Shown here in pieces: positions 2,974 to 63,009 of a stretch of DNA of 64,000 nt. The notes beneath the pieces are model-generated. The model was given only the letters and a program-made list of their open reading frames with translations, made no database searches and had not been told where the DNA came from. A program made the translations under genes and the position numbers. The DNA is taken from assembly GCA_001805445.1 (NCBI GenBank), contig MHGF01000022.1, positions 10,613-74,612 of the forward strand, written 5' to 3'. How positions within the stretch are numbered: position 1 is the first letter of the stretch; every line of letters begins with the position of its first letter. The stretch is from Omnitrophica WOR_2 bacterium GWF2_43_52. GTDB taxonomy: Bacteria; Omnitrophota; Gorgyraeia; Gygaellales; UBA12090.

Positions 2974-2979
2974 ACTTTT

Positions 2980-3075
2980 AACACGAATTAACACGAATTA
3001 CACACAAATGTACACGAATATAATTAAATAATTCGTGCCTGTTCGTGTTTGATTTGTGTGAATTCGTGTAAATTT
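2980..3075. repeat. Copy 1 of a roughly 90-bp imperfect palindrome built from ACACGAATT / AATTCGTGT and CACACAAAT words
   Basis: acacgaatta acacgaatta cacacaaatg tacacgaata | taattaaata | attcgtgcc tgttcgtgtt tgatttgtgtg aattcgtgta; right half is the inverted complement of the left half; 6 nt upstream of the zupT start. Confidence 0.8.
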
Positions 3076-3333
3076 TATTACCCTAGATTCGGTTTTCTGC
3101 CTTTATTAGCCTTCTTTGAACGCCAATTAAGTTTACCCCTTCTTTTACGCTTACTCATTGTGAGGACCGCTCCTTTCATGCAATAATTAATTTCTGGTAT
3201 AATTCTTGCCGTATTATAGCTTAGGCTTGCGAGAAAATCAACAACTATTGACAATAAGGAATCTTATGATTATAATATAATTAGAAATTTAAAGGTATAC
3301 TAGAGTTTTATACTAAGAAAGGAGCGATATTCG

Positions 3334-3639
3334 ATGAAAAAGGCTGTAGTTCTAACCATAATGATGCTTATGCCTCTTGCCATTATTAGTTGCACCACTA
3401 CTCAAAAAGGAGCGGCAGTAGGCGGATTAGGCGGGGCTGCCTTAGGTGGAATAATTGGCCATCAATCAGGACATGGCGGTGAAGGCGCGGCAATTGGAGC
3501 AGCGGTTGGCGCGATCTCAGGGGCGTTAGTCGGCGAGCAGATGGATAAAAAATTCTGCCCCGTATGCGGCGCTGAATACACCTCAGGGGTTACATACTGC
3601 TCAAAAGACGGCACAGAGCTAAAGTTAAAGCAAAAATAA
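3334..3639 (+). CDS. Small lipoprotein with glycine-zipper segment and C-terminal zinc-ribbon (C-x2-C ... C)
   Basis: Signal peptide plus lipobox-like IISC, Gly-rich GAAVGGLGGAALGGIIG, CPVCGAEYTSGVTYC. Confidence 0.5.
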   Translation: MKKAVVLTIMMLMPLAIISCTTTQKGAAVGGLGGAALGGIIGHQSGHGGEGAAIGAAVGAISGALVGEQMDKKFCPVCGAEYTSGVTYCSKDGTELKLKQK

Positions 3640-3725
3640 TTCTTTAAAGAAACTTCTTAAAGAAGTTTCTTTAAAGAAGCCAGGTTTTTTATTATTTTAA
3701 AAGGCCTGGCTTTTTTTATTTCCGA
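3640..3725. terminator. Bidirectional terminator region between convergent genes (tandem hairpins)
   Basis: Perfect 17-bp-arm palindrome ttctttaaagaaacttc ttaa gaagtttctttaaagaa followed by agccagg...cctggct hairpin and T7 run. Confidence 0.55.
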
Positions 3726-4319
3726 AACCGTGCTTGAGCCGGTTGTTACCGCGATTGCCTTTACCTTTGCATTGCGCGCGGTTTGAATATCAACGGTCAT
3801 ATCGCCGACAAAAAGCGTTTCTGAGTTTTTTGCTTTTAGCCTTTTCATAATGGTAATGATAATTTCCGGATCAGGTTTTCCCCGCGGGAGCTTGTCCGCG
3901 CATAAAATATAATCAAAAAACTCCTTGATTTTTAACTGCTTGACAATGATATTGGTAAATGCCGCAGGACGGTTAGAGGCAATAGCGATCTTAAAGCCAT
4001 GGCGTTTTAAATAGTGTAATAACCGCTTCGCGAAAGGAAGGAGCTTGGAATATTTTTTCAAGGAATCCCGATGGTGGCTGCGGTAAATCCTCAAGGCTTT
4101 CGTTATATCCTTTTCTTTGATAAACGCTGATACAAGCCTTGTATCTCCCCAGCCTACCGCCCTGCATATACGCCAAGGCTCTGCCTGAGGATACCCTAAC
4201 GTTTGAAGCGTAAAATTCATGCTTCTGACAATTGCTTCATAGGCATTAACCAAAGTGCCGTCAAGGTCAAAAATAACCACTCGTACACCGCGGGAATCCC
4301 GAACATTGCTGTTTTTCAT
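3657..4319 (-). CDS. HAD-superfamily hydrolase (phosphoglycolate-phosphatase-like)
   Basis: Motif I VVIFDLDGTLVN and C-terminal GDM..D motif typical of HAD hydrolases. Confidence 0.8.
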   Translation of the reverse strand: MKNSNVRDSRGVRVVIFDLDGTLVNAYEAIVRSMNFTLQTLGYPQAEPWRICRAVGWGDTRLVSAFIKEKDITKALRIYRSHHRDSLKKYSKLLPFAKRLLHYLKRHGFKIAIASNRPAAFTNIIVKQLKIKEFFDYILCADKLPRGKPDPEIIITIMKRLKAKNSETLFVGDMTVDIQTARNAKVKAIAVTTGSSTVSEIKKARPFKIIKNLASLKKLL

Positions 4320-4389
4320 AGAGTCATACTACCAATAAAAAACCCTTGGCATCTAAGAAGTTTTGCTTCATAGAATGCCAAGGGTAAAA

Positions 4390-4827
4390 CTATTGCGCTT
4401 TTTCTTCCGGGATTATCCCCATGAGCGGATCATCACTCATACCGGGAGTTTCAGGCATTGCTTCTATATTCTCGATAGAAATATTTCTTGCGATGTTCTG
4501 GCCATTGTTGAGCGCGTAATCAATACTCGCGGTATCGCCTATCTTAATTCCGCTTATATCCTTTACGCCTTCAAATTTTGTCTCCGCGTCTGTTATCAGG
4601 AGAAGCTCTTTTTCTTCATCAGTTTGATAGTCCATATAAATAACGGTTAACTTTGCTGCCTGCGAATCTATCTCCTTTACCTCACCCCAAACCCAGGAAA
4701 TTTCATCCGTTGCGGGCATACTCTCCGTTACCGCCTCTTCTACCGCTCTCGGCTCATGCTGGCAGAATCCTGCTCCCGCTAAAGAAAGTAACCCGATTAT
4801 CGTTAATGCGTACACCTTGGTTTTCAT
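4390..4827 (-). CDS. Secreted/periplasmic hypothetical protein (145 aa)
   Basis: ORF with signal peptide MKTKVYALTIIGLLSLAGAG; no family recognised. Confidence 0.45.
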   Translation of the reverse strand: MKTKVYALTIIGLLSLAGAGFCQHEPRAVEEAVTESMPATDEISWVWGEVKEIDSQAAKLTVIYMDYQTDEEKELLLITDAETKFEGVKDISGIKIGDTASIDYALNNGQNIARNISIENIEAMPETPGMSDDPLMGIIPEEKAQ

Positions 4828-5511: not shown

Positions 5512-5748
5512 CTTTGTCTCCTCAGAATATATCGGTAACGGCACCCAAAAACTTGCCTGAGAAATCAGGAATGGTTACTTATAGATAAAAACTATGCCCT
5601 TCTCCTTTACCGGAATATATGAGAAAAGCATAGGGGCATACCTTTAAGGCCCACAAGAAATTAAAAAAATACCCTGCCCTTATCTTCTGTAAGCATTACT
5701 CTCACAAATAATAAAGGCAGGGTAAACAGCACGGTTAAAAACCCCTTG

Positions 5749-5967: not shown

Positions 5968-6078
5968 TTTTCCACCTCCTTAATTTCGTTGTTTCGCGGT
6001 TACGTTGAATTATAATAAGAAAACAACTGCTCCCCCACCCTTCAGCTATAGTAGTTATCACTGAAAAAGCGTCTTTTA

Positions 6079-6172
6079 AACACGAATTCCCACGAATTAC
6101 ACACTAATCATCACGAATACAGCGACGAAGTAATTCGTGTGTATTTGTGTGTAATTTGTGCCTATTCGTGTA
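6079..6172. repeat. Copy 2 of the CACGAAT-word imperfect palindrome
   Basis: aacacgaattcccacgaattacacactaatcatcacgaatac...aattcgtgtgtatttgtgtgtaatttgtgcctattcgtgtaaaa. Confidence 0.8.
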
Positions 6173-11050: not shown

Positions 11051-13947
<2,897 letters not shown>

Positions 13948-13950
13948 AGG

Positions 13951-14042
13951 AACACGAATAGGCACGAATCGCACACAAATCCACACAAATTGTCCCCGCA
14001 ATAATTCGCGGGAATTCGTGTGTAATGTGTGTTAATTCGTGT
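13951..14042. repeat. Copy 3 of the CACGAAT-word imperfect palindrome, abutting the secA start codon
   Basis: aacacgaataggcacgaatcgcacacaaatccacacaaatt...aattcgcgggaattcgtgtgtaatgtgtgttaattcgtgtt. Confidence 0.8.
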
Positions 14043-25520: not shown

Positions 25521-25597
25521 AATTATTACGTTAGACTATACCATTGCTTCTTTTCTGTCAAGCGAATCCTTAGAGAGTATTGAAAAAATACTTTTTT

Positions 25598-25682
25598 ACA
25601 CGAATTCTCACGAATTCAATGCCGAATTACCACAAATTGCCGGCGAGACACATTCGTGTAAATGTAACAAAAATTCGTGCTT
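25598..25682. repeat. Copy 4 of the CACGAAT-word imperfect palindrome, 76 nt upstream of the histidine-kinase start
   Basis: tacacgaattctcacgaattcaatgccgaattaccacaaatt...cattcgtgtaaatgtaacaaaaattcgtgct. Confidence 0.8.
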
Positions 25683-37392: not shown

Positions 37393-37440
37393 AAAATTTT
37401 TGCACGAAAACAGCTCTTTTTTACGTCTTATATAGTAGGA
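37393..37440 (+). promoter_or_regulatory. Conserved promoter-like motif copy C1 (AAAATTTTTGCACGAAAA-N13-ACGTCTTATATAGTAGG)
   Basis: Near-identical to copies at 39032-39080 and 41574-41623; diverged copy at 43104-43150. Confidence 0.5.
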
Positions 37441-39031: not shown

Positions 39032-39080
39032 AAAATTTTTGCACGAAAACCGCCTCTTACTCCGTCTTATATTGTAGGAG
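39032..39080 (+). promoter_or_regulatory. Conserved promoter-like motif copy C2
   Basis: gaaaatttttgcacgaaaaccgcctcttactccgtcttatattgtaggagg directly upstream of ORF6N-1 ATG. Confidence 0.5.
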
Positions 39081-41195: not shown

Positions 41196-41232
41196 AAGGC
41201 TCGGCATGCCGCACCGCCGAGTTTTTTTTGTT
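41196..41232 (+). terminator. Rho-independent terminator after the 39.7-41.1 kb gene trio
   Basis: ggctcggcatgccgcaccgccgag followed by T8. Confidence 0.55.
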
Positions 41233-41573
41233 GCTGATTGCGGCATAGCGGACGAGCATAGGTAGTTTTTAGGGGACTAGAGCGAGGACGCTGGGGTTGG
41301 CGGCGCCGCCGCCAGCCCCAAGCCTAGCCGAACACGCACGGCATTAGCTGGAAGCCTACCGCCGAGGCAGGCGCCGAGTGAGTCCCGCTCCCAAGCGGGG
41401 CGAACGGTGCAAGGGAGATGCGGAAGCGCGCCCAAGCTCGCGGGACATTATTTCATTGACGAGGAATTGTGATTGTAATAATCTTGGAGTGAATAGTTTA
41501 TTTGACAAATTGCCTTTTGGGGCATTCCTCATAGGAAGAGCACTATCTTGTTCCTTTTCCTAAGATTCCCTCT

Positions 41574-41623
41574 AAAAAATTTTGCACGAAAATAGCTTCC
41601 TTTTACGTCTTATATAGTAGGGG
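41574..41623 (+). promoter_or_regulatory. Conserved promoter-like motif copy C3
   Basis: aaaaaattttgcacgaaaatagcttccttttacgtcttatatagtagggg. Confidence 0.5.
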
Positions 41624-43103: not shown

Positions 43104-43150
43104 CAAAATTTTTGGGAATAAAATGAGAACTTTTTACGTCTAATATGGTG
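43104..43150 (+). promoter_or_regulatory. Diverged copy C4 of the conserved promoter-like motif, upstream of the ECF sigma gene
   Basis: acaaaatttttgggaataaaatgagaactttttacgtctaatatgg; shares AAAATTTTTG and TTTTTACGTCTnATAT blocks with C1-C3. Confidence 0.45.
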
Positions 43151-43161
43151 AAAGGGCAATA

Positions 43162-44773: not shown

Positions 44774-44818
44774 AAAGAGGAGAGGCGCCTTTCTAATGAG
44801 TTGCCTCTCCTCTTTTTA
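44774..44818 (+). terminator. Rho-independent terminator after the sigma/anti-sigma/Spy-like operon
   Basis: aaagaggagaggc ... gcctctcctcttt then TTTAT. Confidence 0.6.
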
Positions 44819-45833
44819 TCCTTAACTGCCCACAGGCTCCTTCTATATCCTGGCCGCGGGATTTCCGCAGCGTCACCACAAGCCCTGCCCGTATCAAAGC
44901 GTGGCTGAATTTTTCGGTCTCGCCTTTATCCGGGGCCTTATAAGGCAATTCCTTTACCGGATTATAGATGAGTAAATTAACCTTGGCATTCCAGCCTTTT
45001 AAAAGCCTGATAATATCTTGAGCGGCTTCTTGCGAACAATTAATTCCTTTAAGTAAAGCATATTCAAAAGTAACCTGACGATTGGTATCTACAGCGTATT
45101 TTTTACAGGCTGCGATTAATTCATTAAGCGGATATTTCTTATTAACAGGCATGAGGCGGCTTCTCGTGAGGCTATCGGCGGAGTGCAAAGATACCGAAAG
45201 CTCTATTTGTAAACCCTCAGAAGCCAAGCGCTTAATTCCCGGAATAATTCCTGATGTAGAAACCGTTATCCTGCGCGCGCCAATACCGAAACCTTCCTTG
45301 CTATTAATAATTCGTATTGCCTTAAGAACATTATCATAATTATCGAGAGGCTCTCCCGTACCCATAAATACAACATGCGTAACCCTCCCCGCACCCCCGC
45401 GGTGCGTGTGGGTTATTGCCAAAAGCTGTGCCAGGATTTCCCAGGCCTTTAAATTCCTCTTGAAACCCAACAATCCGCTCGCGCAGAAATCGCAGGCATA
45501 TTTACAACCAACCTGCGATGAAAGACACACAGTATTTCTGCCTCGAGCAGGTATTACTACCGACTCAACTGAACTCCCATCTTCTAAACGAAAAAGGAAT
45601 TTTCTTGTTCCATCCCTTGATTCCTGCAAAGTAATTAATGCTATCGCCCTATGGGCGAATGTTTCCGTGAGCCGGCTTCGTAGGGACGCGGAAAGATTGG
45701 TCATTGCATCAAAGGAACACGCTCCCCTCTGGTATAACCAAGAAAATATCTGTTTGGCATGATATAACGGCTCATGCCAGTCTTTCAAAACAGATTCTAC
45801 TTCTTGCAGGGAGCAATTTTTTATATCGGTCAT
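44793..45833 (-). CDS. rlmN: 23S rRNA/tRNA m2A methyltransferase RlmN (radical SAM)
   Basis: CKYACDFCASG radical-SAM cluster and RlmN-specific C-terminal Cys. Confidence 0.9.
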   Translation of the reverse strand: MTDIKNCSLQEVESVLKDWHEPLYHAKQIFSWLYQRGACSFDAMTNLSASLRSRLTETFAHRAIALITLQESRDGTRKFLFRLEDGSSVESVVIPARGRNTVCLSSQVGCKYACDFCASGLLGFKRNLKAWEILAQLLAITHTHRGGAGRVTHVVFMGTGEPLDNYDNVLKAIRIINSKEGFGIGARRITVSTSGIIPGIKRLASEGLQIELSVSLHSADSLTRSRLMPVNKKYPLNELIAACKKYAVDTNRQVTFEYALLKGINCSQEAAQDIIRLLKGWNAKVNLLIYNPVKELPYKAPDKGETEKFSHALIRAGLVVTLRKSRGQDIEGACGQLRIKRGEATH

Positions 45834-50989: not shown

Positions 50990-51631
50990 TTATGGCAGAT
51001 ATACGCTGTCATACCTGACCTTTTCTTTCCAAAACACATTAAACCACTCCATATCGCGTTTTTCGTATTTCCTAAAGATTCCCCAACAGAATATATCCAC
51101 CGCCTGTAATCCTAAACTCTCATGCGATAAATAATGATAAATATCAACAGGAATCTTAGGATCAATCCTCCCTTTCAACTCCCTCATAATGTAAGAATTG
51201 AATTCTGCTATTTCCGGCCTTGCCTTGCTTTTATCCACAACTAAATATATCCTTGAGTGCGCCGCTTCAAGAGGAATTTTGTCCATAGCGAGCCGTACAA
51301 CATAATTGTAAACCCGCTCTTTATCTTTCGTAAGGTGGGCATAAAGCCGTTTTTTATTCAAAGTGAGCGAATAAATGTCAAACTCTATACCCTTACACTG
51401 GCTATAAAAATACTTCAATACTCCGAGAGAGGTCTTTGAGCCTTTTAATTCCATCATATCCGATTTTTTATTGAGCTTACGTTTTATCGTGTTTTTGACG
51501 GAATTGATTAACGAGCGGTTTGCCGCGGATCCCATTAACGCAAGAATAGTAACGGTAAAAAAATTGGAGGGTTTCTTGTTCACAAAATCAAACCCCAAAT
51601 CACCGCTTTCATCAAGATACAAATAAAGCAC
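50990..51631 (-). CDS. DUF3800 family protein
   Basis: N-terminal MLYLYLDESGD motif characteristic of DUF3800. Confidence 0.55.
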   Translation of the reverse strand: MLYLYLDESGDLGFDFVNKKPSNFFTVTILALMGSAANRSLINSVKNTIKRKLNKKSDMMELKGSKTSLGVLKYFYSQCKGIEFDIYSLTLNKKRLYAHLTKDKERVYNYVVRLAMDKIPLEAAHSRIYLVVDKSKARPEIAEFNSYIMRELKGRIDPKIPVDIYHYLSHESLGLQAVDIFCWGIFRKYEKRDMEWFNVFWKEKVRYDSVYLP

Positions 51632-51774: not shown

Positions 51775-52245
51775 TCATCTTTTCTCAATTAATTCTTCCA
51801 ATTTAACTATAATCTCATCTAATTTGTCTTTAATGCTATCCCCAAAAGAACTGCCGTCTAAAGAACTTAGATCTTCCTTTATGGAACTCACATCGCTCTC
51901 AAGCGAACTTAAATCATTCAACTTTGCGTCTACCGAACTTAAATGGCTCTCAATATCTAATAAATCTGTTCTATCACTCTCGAGCGACTTTAAATTGCTT
52001 AATTTTGCGTCTATTGAACTTAAATGGCGTTCAATGTTAGATAAATCTGTTCTATCCAATGAACTGATTAACTTGTACGAAATTGAGCTTACATCACTTT
52101 CAATTGAACTTAAACACATTTTAAACCAAACCAGAAAAATAATAAGTAAAACAAAACATATATACACTACCATTCCTTGCCCTCCTTTTCGGATATATTC
52201 ACGATTAGGGCAATAACTTTCATTGCCATTAAGCGCGGGTGGCAA
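51775..52245 (-). CDS. Membrane-anchored coiled-coil protein with internal tandem repeats; N-terminal extension doubtful
   Basis: Repeats RTDLxxIExHLSSxDAKLxxLxSLESD x2; likely true start at MVVYICF; upstream codons overlap the 160-bp repeat element. Confidence 0.4.
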   Translation of the reverse strand: MPPALNGNESYCPNREYIRKGGQGMVVYICFVLLIIFLVWFKMCLSSIESDVSSISYKLISSLDRTDLSNIERHLSSIDAKLSNLKSLESDRTDLLDIESHLSSVDAKLNDLSSLESDVSSIKEDLSSLDGSSFGDSIKDKLDEIIVKLEELIEKR

Positions 52246-52390
52246 GGTTGTGTTTGAGTAGGGCGTACGGAAATTTTTGCAGCTTGGCCGCCGAGCGACA
52301 GCGAGGCGTGCAAAAATTTACGCCGAGTGAGGCTTACCGCAGGAGTAAGCCGAACGTCCCTGCGAAAACATAACCTTGACAGGACCCGCG
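52232..52390. repeat. Copy A of a roughly 160-bp GC-rich hairpin-rich repeat element
   Basis: About 95% identical to 57781-57940; internal inverted repeats ggcgtacggaaatttttgca / tgcaaaaatttacgcc and gcttaccgcaggagtaagc. Confidence 0.85.
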
Positions 52391-53413
52391 TCACTTTATC
52401 CTCACCTGTTTAAACAGCTCAAACAAACGGCTAAAAGGCACATACCAGCGGGAAAGTTTACCCATCTCTCCCTTTAATTTCATCTTCCCCTGCATCACCG
52501 CCACAAAGGGGTCAAGTTTGCCTAAGAATACCAACTGCCAAACATCGGTGGGTGCGCTAATCACAAAGGGCGCGTTATTATCGGCGTCTAGCTTCGTTAT
52601 CTTTCCCTTCTCAAAAGTAAATTTAAAATCCTTGGCATGGCCATCCAAGGTAATCGCAAGCTGCAAAGTCAAATCCAGCTCCCCGCCTTTTTTAGCAATC
52701 AATTCATCTTTATTCACCAAATCCACAATCGCCTGGATATGCTCTTTAGAAAACATCACATACGCATTATCTTGGCTCAAGTTTTCCTTAAGTGCTTTAT
52801 CCAAATCATCCAAAATCTCTTTTTTAAATAATCGGGCAACTGCCGCCACCTTTACCGCCTCCTCTAAGGTTTCAATCATATACAGGCAATCGCTGAATTT
52901 ATCGGCCACCGAAACTACGCCATGGTTCTTGGCTATCACCAAATTGCTGGCCTTTAAAGCATCGATGATTAACTCTGGCCTGGTAATAGCTGGAGTATCT
53001 TGCTCTACCACAGGAATAGTTCCCAAATAAAGCTTACTCTCAAAAGTTAAGGTTTTTAATTCCGAGCACACCGCGAAATAGGCGTTAATAAGACTAGGGT
53101 GGCAATGGATAATGGTTTTATGCGGGAAATTCTCATAGACCAAACGGTGCAGAGGAAATTCGGTAGTCAGGAGCTTATTCTTTAAATCTTCTTCGCTCTT
53201 TAAGTCAATTTTGATAATATCATCGGAAGTTAAACTCCCCAAACTTGTGCCGGTTGCGGTAACCAAGATATTATTTTCATCAAGCCTCGCGCTTAAATTC
53301 CCAGAACGCCCCACCACAAGGCGTAAATCATATAATTTCCTCCCGATAGTGATAATATCATCCCGTAACGATTTTTCTTTTCCAAATATCATCGCACAAA
53401 TCCGTAATCTCAA
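52391..53413 (-). CDS. Class II aldolase/adducin-domain protein fused to a C-terminal SCP2 sterol-carrier domain
   Basis: N-terminal class II aldolase fold with HCHPS metal motif; C-terminal 100 aa resemble SCP2 (LDPFVAVMQGKMKLKGEMGKL). Confidence 0.65.
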   Translation of the reverse strand: MRLRICAMIFGKEKSLRDDIITIGRKLYDLRLVVGRSGNLSARLDENNILVTATGTSLGSLTSDDIIKIDLKSEEDLKNKLLTTEFPLHRLVYENFPHKTIIHCHPSLINAYFAVCSELKTLTFESKLYLGTIPVVEQDTPAITRPELIIDALKASNLVIAKNHGVVSVADKFSDCLYMIETLEEAVKVAAVARLFKKEILDDLDKALKENLSQDNAYVMFSKEHIQAIVDLVNKDELIAKKGGELDLTLQLAITLDGHAKDFKFTFEKGKITKLDADNNAPFVISAPTDVWQLVFLGKLDPFVAVMQGKMKLKGEMGKLSRWYVPFSRLFELFKQVRIK

Positions 53414-55184: not shown

Positions 55185-55486
55185 CTCTTTTTCTCCTCAA
55201 TGAGCACTTGACTTATGGAGTCCGAAGGACGAACATAAGTCAATGTGCGAATTGATCCCGCCGAGTGTGGGAAAATTATCCGCGGGATAGCCCTTCTTGT
55301 ACCAATTTAAGGAGAGGGTTTATCGAAGAGAATTTTCCCACATCTTACGAGGCGGGATGTTTAATGACAATATGCCTTACGGAACGAGCGAAGAGAGTGA
55401 ACGTAAGTCACTGCGCGAATTAACTCCGCCGAGCCCCAGCCTCTGGCGGGGTGTTGGCGAGACGGAGTAATCATTCTCTCTCTTTA
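55185..55486 (-). ncRNA. Roughly 300-nt structured leader/possible riboregulator upstream of the phosphorylase-mtnA-aldolase operon
   Basis: Two tandem about 60-nt repeats each with an 8-bp stem (gacttatg..cataagtc / gccttacg..cgtaagtc), a long-range pairing tcccgccgagtgtgggaaaa / ttttcccaca..ggcggga, and a UUCG-capped hairpin just before the SD. Confidence 0.3.
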
Positions 55487-57321: not shown

Positions 57322-57753
57322 TTAAGTATGCGTTTGTTTTTCTTCTAAGATTCTTTTTATCATCTCTTCGTGATAAGCTGCCTTGATTTTTGTTAGCCCT
57401 TCCTGTCCGGCATCTTTTACAATTGCCTTTTCTATGGCATTAAGCTTTACGTCTAAAAAGATAAATTCAGGGTCAATTTTTTTGCCTTTATATTTTAACT
57501 GCAGACAGGCTTTTTCTTTTTCGACAATATACGACCTAAATTCATTAACTAATTTCTCTAAAGGCTTTTTCTCCTGTGGCATATAGGAACCTTTGAGTTC
57601 TTTTTCCATCTCTTTTAAAATAAACTCATCAATCTCTAGTTGAGTGAATTTGCGTTCATAGCGGTCAAAGGCTTCTTTGGTAGTCTTATAAAGCCATGTC
57701 AAATAACGAATTCTTAGATTCTTCTCGTCTTTTTTATCCACTCCCCCCTCCAT
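57322..57753 (-). CDS. Hypothetical protein (143 aa), helical
   Basis: ORF with no recognisable motif; preceded by the 160-bp repeat. Confidence 0.4.
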   Translation of the reverse strand: MEGGVDKKDEKNLRIRYLTWLYKTTKEAFDRYERKFTQLEIDEFILKEMEKELKGSYMPQEKKPLEKLVNEFRSYIVEKEKACLQLKYKGKKIDPEFIFLDVKLNAIEKAIVKDAGQEGLTKIKAAYHEEMIKRILEEKQTHT

Positions 57754-57780: not shown

Positions 57781-57940
57781 AGCGCGGGCGGCGAGGTTGT
57801 GTTTGAGCAGGGCGTACGGAAATTTTTGCAGCTTGGCCGCCGAGCGGTAAGCGAGGCGTGCAAAAATTTACGCCGAGTGAGGCTTGCCGCAGGAGCGAGC
57901 CGAACGTCCCTGCGAAAACATAACCTTGACAGGACCCGCG
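57781..57940. repeat. Copy B of the roughly 160-bp GC-rich hairpin-rich repeat element
   Basis: See copy A; hairpin gcttgccgcaggagcgagc carries compensatory changes relative to copy A (A-U to G-C). Confidence 0.85.
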
Positions 57941-57942
57941 CC

Positions 57943-58716
57943 CTATTTCCCGGGGTGTTCCTGCTTAAACGGTATCACCGGAGCAGTCCAGGGAGTCTGT
58001 TGATTTATCACTGCGATCTCCAGAGGACAAACATTTGCCGGAACCGTCAACGCGAACTTAACTGCGTTCTCAATCGCCTCAGTACTCATAAGGCGCGAGG
58101 TATTGGCGGTAATATCCTTAAGTTTTCCGGTTAAGTCCGTATCGGTTACTCCCGGCAAAATAGAAGTTACCTTAATCCCATGGTCACGCATCTCCCAGAA
58201 TAACCCCTTACAAAATGCGCGCAGGCCTACTTTCAGAGAACTGTATACCACAAAATTTCTAGGAACAGGGTCACACAAGGTTGAGCCTGAAACCATATTG
58301 ATGATTGCACCTGCTTTATTTTTTATCATATCATTTATCACTAAGCGAATCAAACGCACATAACCTAAATAATTGGTAAAAGCCAATTTCTCAAAATCCT
58401 CAATAGGTTGCTTCTCAAAAGGCGACTGGCTTGATACCCCCGCATTATTAATAAGAATATCTGTCGTACCAAATTTCTCTTTGGTTTTATTAACTAAATT
58501 CTCTAAATCGGCTAATTGCGTTACATCGCAGCCTATCGGGAGAACGTCAACCTTATATTTTTTGCGAATTTCATCCGCCGTTTCCTTAAGCGGGCCTTCT
58601 CCACGGGCGGCGAGTGCCAGATTAATCCCTAAACTTGCGGCGGTACAGGCCAAGGCCTTGCCAATTCCCCTGCTGGCCCCGGTCACAATCGCGGTTTTTC
58701 CTTTTAAGTCGGACAT
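57943..58716 (-). CDS. Short-chain dehydrogenase/reductase (FabG-like)
   Basis: TGASRGIG cofactor motif and Tyr/Lys catalytic region. Confidence 0.85.
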   Translation of the reverse strand: MSDLKGKTAIVTGASRGIGKALACTAASLGINLALAARGEGPLKETADEIRKKYKVDVLPIGCDVTQLADLENLVNKTKEKFGTTDILINNAGVSSQSPFEKQPIEDFEKLAFTNYLGYVRLIRLVINDMIKNKAGAIINMVSGSTLCDPVPRNFVVYSSLKVGLRAFCKGLFWEMRDHGIKVTSILPGVTDTDLTGKLKDITANTSRLMSTEAIENAVKFALTVPANVCPLEIAVINQQTPWTAPVIPFKQEHPGK

Positions 58717-62280: not shown

Positions 62281-63009
62281 ACGCACCGCGGGGGTGCGTT
62301 ATTGGTTATCATTCTAGTATTTGTTGTTTTATTGCCGCCAAATCTCTTTGATATCCAATCATATCATTGACAAACTTTTTATATTGGTCCACAGCTATGT
62401 TTATCACATTTTCATACCTACAAATACGATTAGTAACTTCCAAGATATATTCTTTATAAGAAGAATATATCCAAGACTCGGGAATATCTGTTAGATATGC
62501 CGTAACGGGGTTCAAATGAATGTATCTTGTAAGGTGGAGCAACTGTTCGTCCGTTTTAATCAAGACATTCTTAAATCGTCCTTCCCATAACGGCCCTTTT
62601 CGCTTATGTTTTATGTTAAAATATTTCGTGTAGCTATTAAAAATATTATTCATAAAAAGTGATATGCCATTATCTTTTAATTGCTTTAAAATAAAATGGG
62701 TATGGGTAGGCATAATACAATAAGATACGATATCTACCAGTTTATCTTGCTTATTCTTTAAACAATCACTCAGATACTCATCAATTGTATGTTTATTGGC
62801 ATCTTTCGTTCTAAGAAAGTCTGAAAGCCTTAAGGAATGTCCTTCACATTGATAATATCTAATTGCTACAATTATCCTTAAATATTCTGATTCATTATTA
62901 AATATCTTAAATCCCGCGATACTTTTATTAAAAACATGATAAAACTCTCCTATCGCTAATGGTTCTTTTCTATACATTGTAAACAAACCATACGCACCGC
63001 GGGGGTGCG
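62281..63009 (-). mobile_element. RAYT (REP-associated tyrosine transposase, IS200/HUH-like) gene flanked by two copies of an 18-bp REP-like hairpin
   Basis: ACGCACCGCGGGGGTGCG at 62281-62298 and 62992-63009; enclosed ORF has YHVFNKS N-terminus, HuH motif HTHFIL and catalytic Tyr region. Confidence 0.7.
62309..62986 (-). CDS. REP-associated tyrosine transposase (RAYT / IS200-like Y1 HUH transposase)
   Basis: See mobile element; 225 aa. Confidence 0.7.
   Translation of the reverse strand: MFTMYRKEPLAIGEFYHVFNKSIAGFKIFNNESEYLRIIVAIRYYQCEGHSLRLSDFLRTKDANKHTIDEYLSDCLKNKQDKLVDIVSYCIMPTHTHFILKQLKDNGISLFMNNIFNSYTKYFNIKHKRKGPLWEGRFKNVLIKTDEQLLHLTRYIHLNPVTAYLTDIPESWIYSSYKEYILEVTNRICRYENVINIAVDQYKKFVNDMIGYQRDLAAIKQQILE

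Follow-up and report, generated by a model that had tools for sequence, protein, structure and literature searches.

A previously undescribed family of hairpin-forming, non-coding repeats scattered between Omnitrophota genes, and its likeness to REPINs and other mobile elements

Among the MITEs, the Correia element of Neisseria, ERIC/IRU, RUP and YPAL are 100-170 bp in length and fold to long hairpins that can be processed by RNase, and for Correia and ERIC elements such processing occurs at intercistronic hairpins. PATEs, which are derived from IS200/IS605, are non-autonomous and hairpin-dependent, act as strand-specific single-stranded DNA, cause no target duplication and show orientation bias. 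In IS200/IS605-type elements, the active strand is expected on the lagging-strand template. REPINs possess inverted conserved arms and a variable spacer, form a hairpin in single-stranded DNA or RNA with compensatory changes, and have singlet counterparts (PMC3116915). In attC sites, it is the bottom strand that folds, with an R-box 5'-AAC-3'/GTT (RYYYAAC/GTTRRRY) at the hairpin base and a terminal structure that varies from a 3-nt loop to a branched fold (PMC5027507).

No Omnitrophota have been cultured, and next to nothing is known of the biology of their mobile DNA and RNA. We analysed a stretch of 64,000 nucleotides from Omnitrophica WOR_2 bacterium GWF2_43_52 (hereafter the window), in which a first-pass annotation had proposed a duplicated GC-rich element at 52232-52390 and 57781-57940. 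The duplication proved real. The two copies, A and B, are about 95% identical with 9 aligned positions being different (one of them an indel), and their GC content (57% and 61%, respectively) stands out against the 42% of the window. A 20-mer of the repeat, GGCGTACGGAAATTTTTGCA, occurs exactly twice in the window against a chance expectation of 0.03. Each copy sits between co-directional minus-strand genes and, as had also been proposed, starts right after a stop codon, at a distance of 0-2 nucleotides. The right end of copy A (52390) directly adjoins the stop codon of the aldolase-SCP2 gene (TCA/TGA, 52391-52393), and the likely ATG of the next gene, a 132-aa ORF, lies about 58 nucleotides beyond its left end. 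The right end of copy B (57940) is 2 nucleotides short of the TAG stop codon of an SDR gene (57943-57945), and 27 nucleotides separate its left end from the next gene, a 143-aa ORF with its start at 57753. Six operon genes lie in between the two copies. Aldolase orthologues carry the annotation Omnitrophota or Omnitrophica, and the SDR protein is also encoded on Omnitrophota MAG contigs, including GCA_003451255.1 and GCA_001804385.1.

Two properties had escaped the first-pass annotation: the entire element is one long imperfect hairpin with its ends mutually paired, and of the two strands, the + strand folds better, the one antisense to the flanking genes. The two copies and the parts of copy A are as follows.

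52232..52390 (+), repeat copy A, 159 nt, in its better-folding orientation (plus form), model score 188.8 bits
57781..57940 (+), repeat copy B, 160 nt, model score 188.2 bits
52234..52240 (+), copy A, 5' arm of basal helix P1, CGCGGGT, partner 52383-52390
52241-52242 (+), copy A, GG on the opposite side of the asymmetric loop
52243..52257 (+), copy A, 5' arm of helix P2, CAAGGTTGTGTTT, plus the GA of the tandem G-A loop; P2 partner 52366-52378
52258..52266 (+), copy A, 5' arm of helix P3, partner 52354-52363; closes the three-way junction
52268..52325 (+), copy A, hairpin 1, arms AAATTTTTGCA / TGCAAAAATTT and inner stem CGCC-GA-GC-loop-GC-GA-GGCG
52331..52351 (+), copy A, hairpin 2, GGCTTACC-GCAGGA-GTAAGCC, with conserved loop GCAGG
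52364-52365 (+), copy A, partner GA of the tandem G-A loop
52379..52390 (+), copy A, 3' side of the asymmetric loop, ACAGG[A] (invariant), then 3' arm of P1, CCCGCG

From base to apex, the fold thus consists of P1, an asymmetric loop (5'-GG / ACAGG), P2 with 13 base pairs, a tandem GA/GA loop and the start of P3. The terminal inverted repeats are CGCGGGT-GG-CAAGGTTGTGTTT and AAACATAACCTTG-ACAGG-ACCCGCG, and the signature GGGUGGC...GACAGGACCC is common to all size variants of the family described below. P1 and the asymmetric GG/ACAGG loop are present in every complete size variant; the full-length copies have GCGGGU/ACCCGC as P1, for which the 40-nt versions have the covarying AUGGGU/ACCCAU. 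Above this base, the structure differs with length. In the 160-nt form, P3 leads into a three-way junction from which two hairpins emerge, with a conserved CCGAG(U/C)G segment linking them. Everything above the asymmetric loop is replaced by a simple triloop hairpin in both 40-nt versions. The left end may alternatively form a hairpin of its own (CTTGCC/GGCAAG). The tandem GA/GA loop recurs in the L019 and L005 copies. Apical parts vary by subfamily and often end in C-G-closed GNA triloops (GCA, GTA, and GAA within GCGAAGC), a type of DNA mini-hairpin that is a classic example of very high stability. When the folding of each window copy was compared with that of dinucleotide-preserving shuffles, z ranged from -4.4 to -7.2 and none of 200 shuffles folded as well.

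Further copies were found by exact 18-mer scans and by a protein-database search with a spurious ORF called over the element. Public contigs provided 13 distinct full-length sequences of 156-172 nucleotides: A and B of the window, L030 and L035, and L003, L012, L014, L017, L021, L025, L036, L038 and L040. The L030 and L035 copies are single-base variants of copy B, the L021 copy occurs in identical form in L008 and L027, and the L038 and L040 copies are diverged (64-81 bits against the model). The family also includes mini versions, one of 69 nucleotides (L019) and two of about 40 nucleotides (L041 and L012), as well as solo arms in L027, L040 and L016. A longer copy in L005 is broken by a run of N (2221-2326) that is probably a scaffold gap, so the 256-nt length of that copy is unreliable. 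Every traceable copy belongs to an Omnitrophota MAG, and the neighbouring genes are unrelated to one another (uvrA, cobD, thiolase, response regulator, TMEM260-like, SDR and aldolase). Copies seen per genome are few (2-3); the genome of the window contains at least 2, both within the 64 kb.

In L016, two solo right arms in direct orientation (3124-3163 and 3763-3801) bracket a 147-aa secreted-protein ORF (3272-3715) in a cassette-like layout; the model scores of these arms are weak (E>=0.2), and they were counted only as solo right arms. The 69-nt mini copy of L019 (3336-3404) lies 165 nucleotides downstream of an Xer-like tyrosine recombinase gene (3570-4664, minus strand). In the right-end 18-mer scans, 4 of 6 genome loci and 14 of 23 metagenome and viral loci possessed no significant match to the element or matched over the seed only (18-20 nucleotides). 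The plasmid and phage collections, searched by blastn in distant mode, gave no match to the element, and Rfam returned nothing on it, either at gathering thresholds or at E<=10. No description of the repeat family was found in Rfam or in the literature searched, and the repeat is a previously undescribed non-coding, hairpin-forming family scattered between Omnitrophota genes.

A 75-aa ORF covers copy A (52167-52394, minus strand). Pfam gave no match for this ORF, the database contained just two relatives of it, each lying over a copy of the repeat, and substitutions keep pairing rather than codons; a coding role was thus rejected. Such repeats yield spurious ORF calls, of which the 75-aa 'protein' is an example. 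They also appear to break or mis-join MAG assemblies, as with the gap inside the L005 copy and with a switch of neighbouring sequence at the repeat boundary in L017.

The first-pass annotation had read a compensatory change in hairpin 2 as the signature of selection on RNA structure. The change itself was confirmed: GCTTAC..GTAAGC in copy A corresponds to GCTTGC..GCGAGC in copy B, an A-U pair having become G-C together with a U-G wobble. We extended the comparison to the 13 distinct copies with a model-based alignment of 55 pairs, an alignment that was itself fitted to the model. Standard pairs made up 97.2% of the cells, and 22 of the 55 pairs showed double compensatory changes. The covariation score was 0.251 as opposed to 0.122 for shuffled alignments, and none of 500 shuffles attained the observed values. 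As a control, sliding the partners by 1-3 columns lowered pairing to 27-48%. A MAFFT alignment of the 11 closest copies already contained six doubly compensated pairs. Within hairpin 1, pairs 50/81 and 59/79 underwent compensatory changes in 5 sequences each. The fold is clearly under selection.

The strand on which the pairing is maintained could also be determined. The RNAalifold consensus reached -73.6 kcal/mol on the plus form but only -41.2 kcal/mol on its complement. Paired positions contained 36 G-U cells distributed over 11 pairs, compared with 5 A-C cells that were all singletons, and this excess of G-U over A-C (36:5) identifies the window + strand as the folded one. When individual copies were folded, the plus form did better in 15 of 16 under RNA parameters and in 16 of 16 under DNA parameters. 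Because the plus form is enriched in G and A, not in G and T, the asymmetry goes beyond what base composition alone would produce. Relative to the flanking genes, the plus form runs antisense in 13 of the 14 complete copies, the exception being L040, and its right end lies -2 to 165 nucleotides from the upstream stop codon. Selection on the pairing of one strand points to a folded single strand as the functional form and argues against double-stranded terminal repeats; that this strand is antisense to the mRNA favours single-stranded DNA. For the earlier claim of selection on RNA structure, the part on secondary structure therefore stood (22 of 55 double changes, 0 of 500 shuffles), whereas RNA as the selected molecule did not follow, since the folded strand is antisense to the operon mRNA and folded single-stranded DNA explains the data equally well.

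These strand results weigh directly on the possibility that the element works in the sense-strand mRNA as a cis element, either as an intercistronic RNase III processing site or as a 3' stabiliser that uncouples upstream from downstream cistrons in stability or translation, being a host-selected and re-used module rather than a mobile one. Its location would suit such a role, as it always lies between co-directional genes, 0-165 nucleotides past the stop codon and in the same orientation in 13 of 14 complete copies, with a sense-strand hairpin that is still very stable (-59 to -75 kcal/mol). Other, unrelated palindromes are found in the same intergenic sites (in L037 and at window 55185-55486), and Correia and ERIC set a precedent for such processing. 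However, pairing is selected on the opposite strand, where each G-U of the plus form would become an A-C mismatch in the mRNA, and the sense-strand alignment fold is much poorer (-41 kcal/mol). Combined with the missing U-tract, the relatives that do without the element at the same sites and the opposite orientation of the L040 copy, these results make an mRNA cis element quite unlikely.

A folded + strand could also be a transcript. According to this explanation, the copies are + strand genes for small structured non-coding RNAs that run antisense to the operon. Each RNA would have a protein-binding basal rod (P1, the 2x5 loop, P2 and the GA/GA loop) and a three-way junction, and would act either in trans or, in cis, on the upstream gene at its 3' end. 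The strand assignment agrees with it, as does the tolerance of G-U but not of A-C. The element is moreover a GC-rich island in an AT-rich genome, as is typical of structured RNAs, and it carries tandem G-A loops, a common RNA motif. The unpaired nucleotides of CCGAG[U/C]G, GCAGG and GA/GA are retained even in the L038 and L040 copies, which have diverged to 64-81 bits, and conservation of loops and junction to this extent would be expected of a functional RNA more than of selfish DNA. By contrast, the signals of a discrete transcription unit were not seen. Neither copy is accompanied by a sigma-70-like promoter or by an intrinsic terminator (hairpin plus U-tract) above chance, and no conserved upstream region was found across independent copies. 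The single terminator-like match on the + strand (52223-52245) is within chance expectation, and the sense strand has none. Both mini forms, of 40 and of 69 nucleotides, dispense with the whole junction, solo arms exist, the loci are unrelated, orthologous sites are empty and Rfam provides no match. An antisense small RNA is thus a doubtful explanation, though it would constitute a new class of antisense structured RNA if RNA were the active form.

Among the roles that the first-pass annotation had listed, the discrete small RNA accordingly keeps some plausibility on the + strand, and the promoter signal that was looked for did not appear. The terminator or antiterminator was not upheld, for lack of a U-tract and of any terminator-like site beyond chance expectation. 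The REP-like element fits best, with its dispersal, presence/absence differences, size variants and solo arms. Likeness to Y RNA, the k-turn and 6S RNA, which had been considered by eye, was dropped because sequence requirements were unmet and Rfam gave no match.

Five relatives (L037-L041) share the operon, with aldolase identities of 76-83%. At the copy A site, the element is absent from all five: what comes directly after the aldolase gene in them is the aldehyde dehydrogenase gene or else some other inserted genes. At the copy B site, the intergenic region after the SDR gene, it is absent from L037-L040, and L041 ends before the site. L038 and L040 instead possess diverged copies in another intergenic region, between the amidohydrolase and PNP genes, in mutually opposite orientations. 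Outside this operon, L012 and L014 have in common only the element and a 57-nt extension, with differing flanking genes, and we rejected them as orthologous loci for this reason. From the first base of copy B rightward, L017 and the window are 99.5% identical, and exactly at that base L017 joins a czcA-like gene (433/434). The junction arose either by rearrangement or by joining via a third copy during assembly, and it makes a third copy in the genome of the window probable. An argument from a conservation peak in L032 was set aside as uninformative because L032 is identical to the window over the whole region. Taken together, the empty orthologous sites and the L012/L014 and L017 results show a dispersed repeat with turnover, as opposed to a fixed syntenic gene.

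A further possibility is an attC-like single-stranded site, whose bottom strand would be recombined by a tyrosine recombinase other than a canonical integron integrase, so that genes could be inserted or exchanged beside it, and through which a 1.5-kb block with a DUF3800 gene next to copy A would have arrived. The element does parallel attC in anatomy, as a bottom-strand hairpin just 3' of an ORF in which the strand antisense to the gene folds better, with two helices, an unpaired spacer and a variable terminus. Copy A borders the accessory block, which is absent or different in relatives; the neighbours in L017 switch exactly at the element boundary; the L016 solo arms bracket an ORF; and the L019 mini copy is 165 nucleotides from a gene for an Xer-like recombinase. 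Identity with attC was nevertheless rejected. The hairpin base is CGCGGGT/ACCCGCG and lacks the AAC/GTT R-box; P2 contains the only GTT/AAC, and its polarity is inverted. The spacer between the helices measures 2x5 unpaired nucleotides versus about 5x6 in attC, and the pattern of extrahelical bases, the cassette arrays of ORFs and sites, and an IntI integrase are all missing, no integrase being present within the annotated 37.5-64 kb of the window. The recombinase beside the L019 mini copy scores 40 bits versus an IntI cut-off of 265 and is thus generic, not an integron integrase, and it is one isolated case; as for the L017 junction, a chimera formed at a repeat during assembly may account for it. 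A recombination site of this kind is therefore very unlikely. By analogy, the core of P1, GG/ACAGG loop and P2 might be a new folded single-stranded DNA recombination site that a non-IntI enzyme uses for insertion and exchange of accessory genes in Omnitrophota operons, for which we see a slim chance.

We consider the family best explained as a non-autonomous REP/REPIN/MITE-like mobile element that would be active as folded single-stranded DNA and recognised by a putative enzyme, with a probability of roughly one half. The repeat is real and dispersed, occurs in size variants and as solo arms, and combines a compensated structure with unequal folding of the two strands and an orientation bias. 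This reading is based on the dispersal, the empty orthologous sites, the common ends with a variable interior, the solo arms and the lack of coding capacity; mobility, a single-stranded DNA intermediate and the enzyme are what we infer from them. The core, consisting of P1, the GG/ACAGG loop, P2 and the G-A loop (about 25 bp per arm), would serve as a recognition platform for a trans-acting enzyme. The apex would be replaceable cargo, either a GNA-triloop hairpin (40 nucleotides) or a three-way junction with two hairpins (160 nucleotides). The active form would most likely be single-stranded DNA, used for copying or insertion at permissive intergenic sites just past stop codons. After insertion into an operon, the weaker complementary hairpin would be co-transcribed and would likely become a substrate of an RNase III-type enzyme. 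Such an active form would imply a hairpin-recognising enzyme that awaits discovery; our search identified no transposition event, excision product or mobilising enzyme. The low apparent copy number (2-3 versus the tens to hundreds typical of REPINs) counts against a mobile element.

Comparison with the described systems places this family closest to REPINs, although the element could not be classified as a REPIN, a classical MITE, an attC site or an Rfam family. Like REPINs, it is extragenic, GC-rich and non-coding, possesses inverted conserved arms with a less conserved spacer and a compensated hairpin, has solo arms and lacks a target-site duplication. It differs from them in being much longer, in its three-way-junction interior with conserved loops and in its low apparent copy number, and no GTAG-type conserved 5' tetranucleotide was seen in it. 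With the MITEs it shares the size range of 100-170 bp, folding to long hairpins, imperfect terminal inverted repeats, transcribed intergenic sites and internal indel variants with the same ends. Target-site duplication or a conserved flanking target was found at none of the full-length copies examined, with TA on both sides at the L019 mini copy only, and exact 18-mer scans of genome, metagenome and viral collections yielded just short elements or chance matches and revealed no parent insertion sequence with the same ends. Moreover, pairing selected on one strand is not predicted for transposase-bound double-stranded inverted repeats. PATEs are comparable in being non-autonomous and hairpin-dependent, in their strand-specific use of single-stranded DNA, in causing no target duplication and in their orientation bias. 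They differ in possessing separate subterminal left- and right-end hairpins, whereas the ends of the element pair mutually. If genes are co-oriented with replication, as read from GC skew, the well-folding strand is on the leading-strand template, opposite to the lagging-strand location expected for the active strand of PATEs and other IS200/IS605-type elements, and this counts against the mobile-element reading. The family thus unites the population behaviour of REP/REPIN/MITE elements with an elaborate conserved fold and one-strand selection antisense to genes.

The window itself encodes a RAYT-like Y1 gene (62309-62986, minus strand), which matches Pfam Y1_Tnp and reaches 61 bits with NCBIfam REP_Tyr_transpos, below the cut-off of 80; its sole PDB match is 4ER8, TnpArep. 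On either side of the gene stands an 18-nt hairpin, ACGCACCGCGGGGGTGCG, in direct copies at 62281-62298 and 62992-63009 (+). The gene is an insertion, since it is missing at the corresponding site in L037-L040. Mobilisation of the repeat by this gene was rejected because the flanking ACGCACCGCGGGGGTGCG hairpins differ from the element. A third copy of this hairpin lies at 45390-45407 on the minus strand, inside an ORF (44793-45833).

The intergenic sites of the operon contain other palindromic sequences. In L037, an unrelated 85-nt palindrome, CGCGGAACTT...AAGTTCCGCG (5561-5645), is located right after the SDR stop codon, which corresponds to the copy B site, and its sense strand is the better folder (-46.6 versus -35.3 kcal/mol). 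The amidohydrolase-PNP intergenic region of the window (55185-55486, 300 nucleotides) contains four GC-rich hairpins and a repeated GCGAATTNAYYCCGCCGAG motif, and folds better on the + strand (-119 versus -104 kcal/mol); the same region is just 15 nucleotides long in L037.

The 1.5-kb block between the aldolase and aldehyde dehydrogenase genes comprises copy A, the 132-aa ORF, a DUF3800 gene and a DUF3800-V RNA. The ORF (51775-52173, minus strand) has a weak EAD9 match and holds an 81-nt tandem repeat (51892-52053). The DUF3800-V RNA motif (RF02964, 50886-50985, + strand, 70.9 bits) adjoins the stop codon of the DUF3800 gene (50990-51631, minus strand) in antisense. The block is absent in L038-L041, and L037 has an SLFN_AlbA_2 ATPase there instead.

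Other repeated or structured sequences were seen elsewhere in the window. A strongly folding intergenic stretch with 61% GC (41207-41478) includes GCGCCGAGTGAG-hairpin-CGAACG, which resembles the junction and hairpin 2 of the element, and gives a weak model match at 41333-41409 (E 0.57). This stretch is perhaps a further structured RNA, or else a related module. A 47-nt repeat, AAAATTTTTGCACGAAAA...TATATAGT, precedes four + strand genes (37393-37439, 39032-39078, 41575-41621 and 43106-43152), among which are those of two ORF6N-domain proteins and one ECF sigma factor. It has AAATTTTTGCA in common with the hairpin 1 arms, and looks like a shared promoter or leader. Finally, clusters of short ACACGAAT-type repeats occur in several intergenic regions (2976-3030, 6075-6119, 13947-13991 and 25593-25637) and may represent an array of regulator binding sites.
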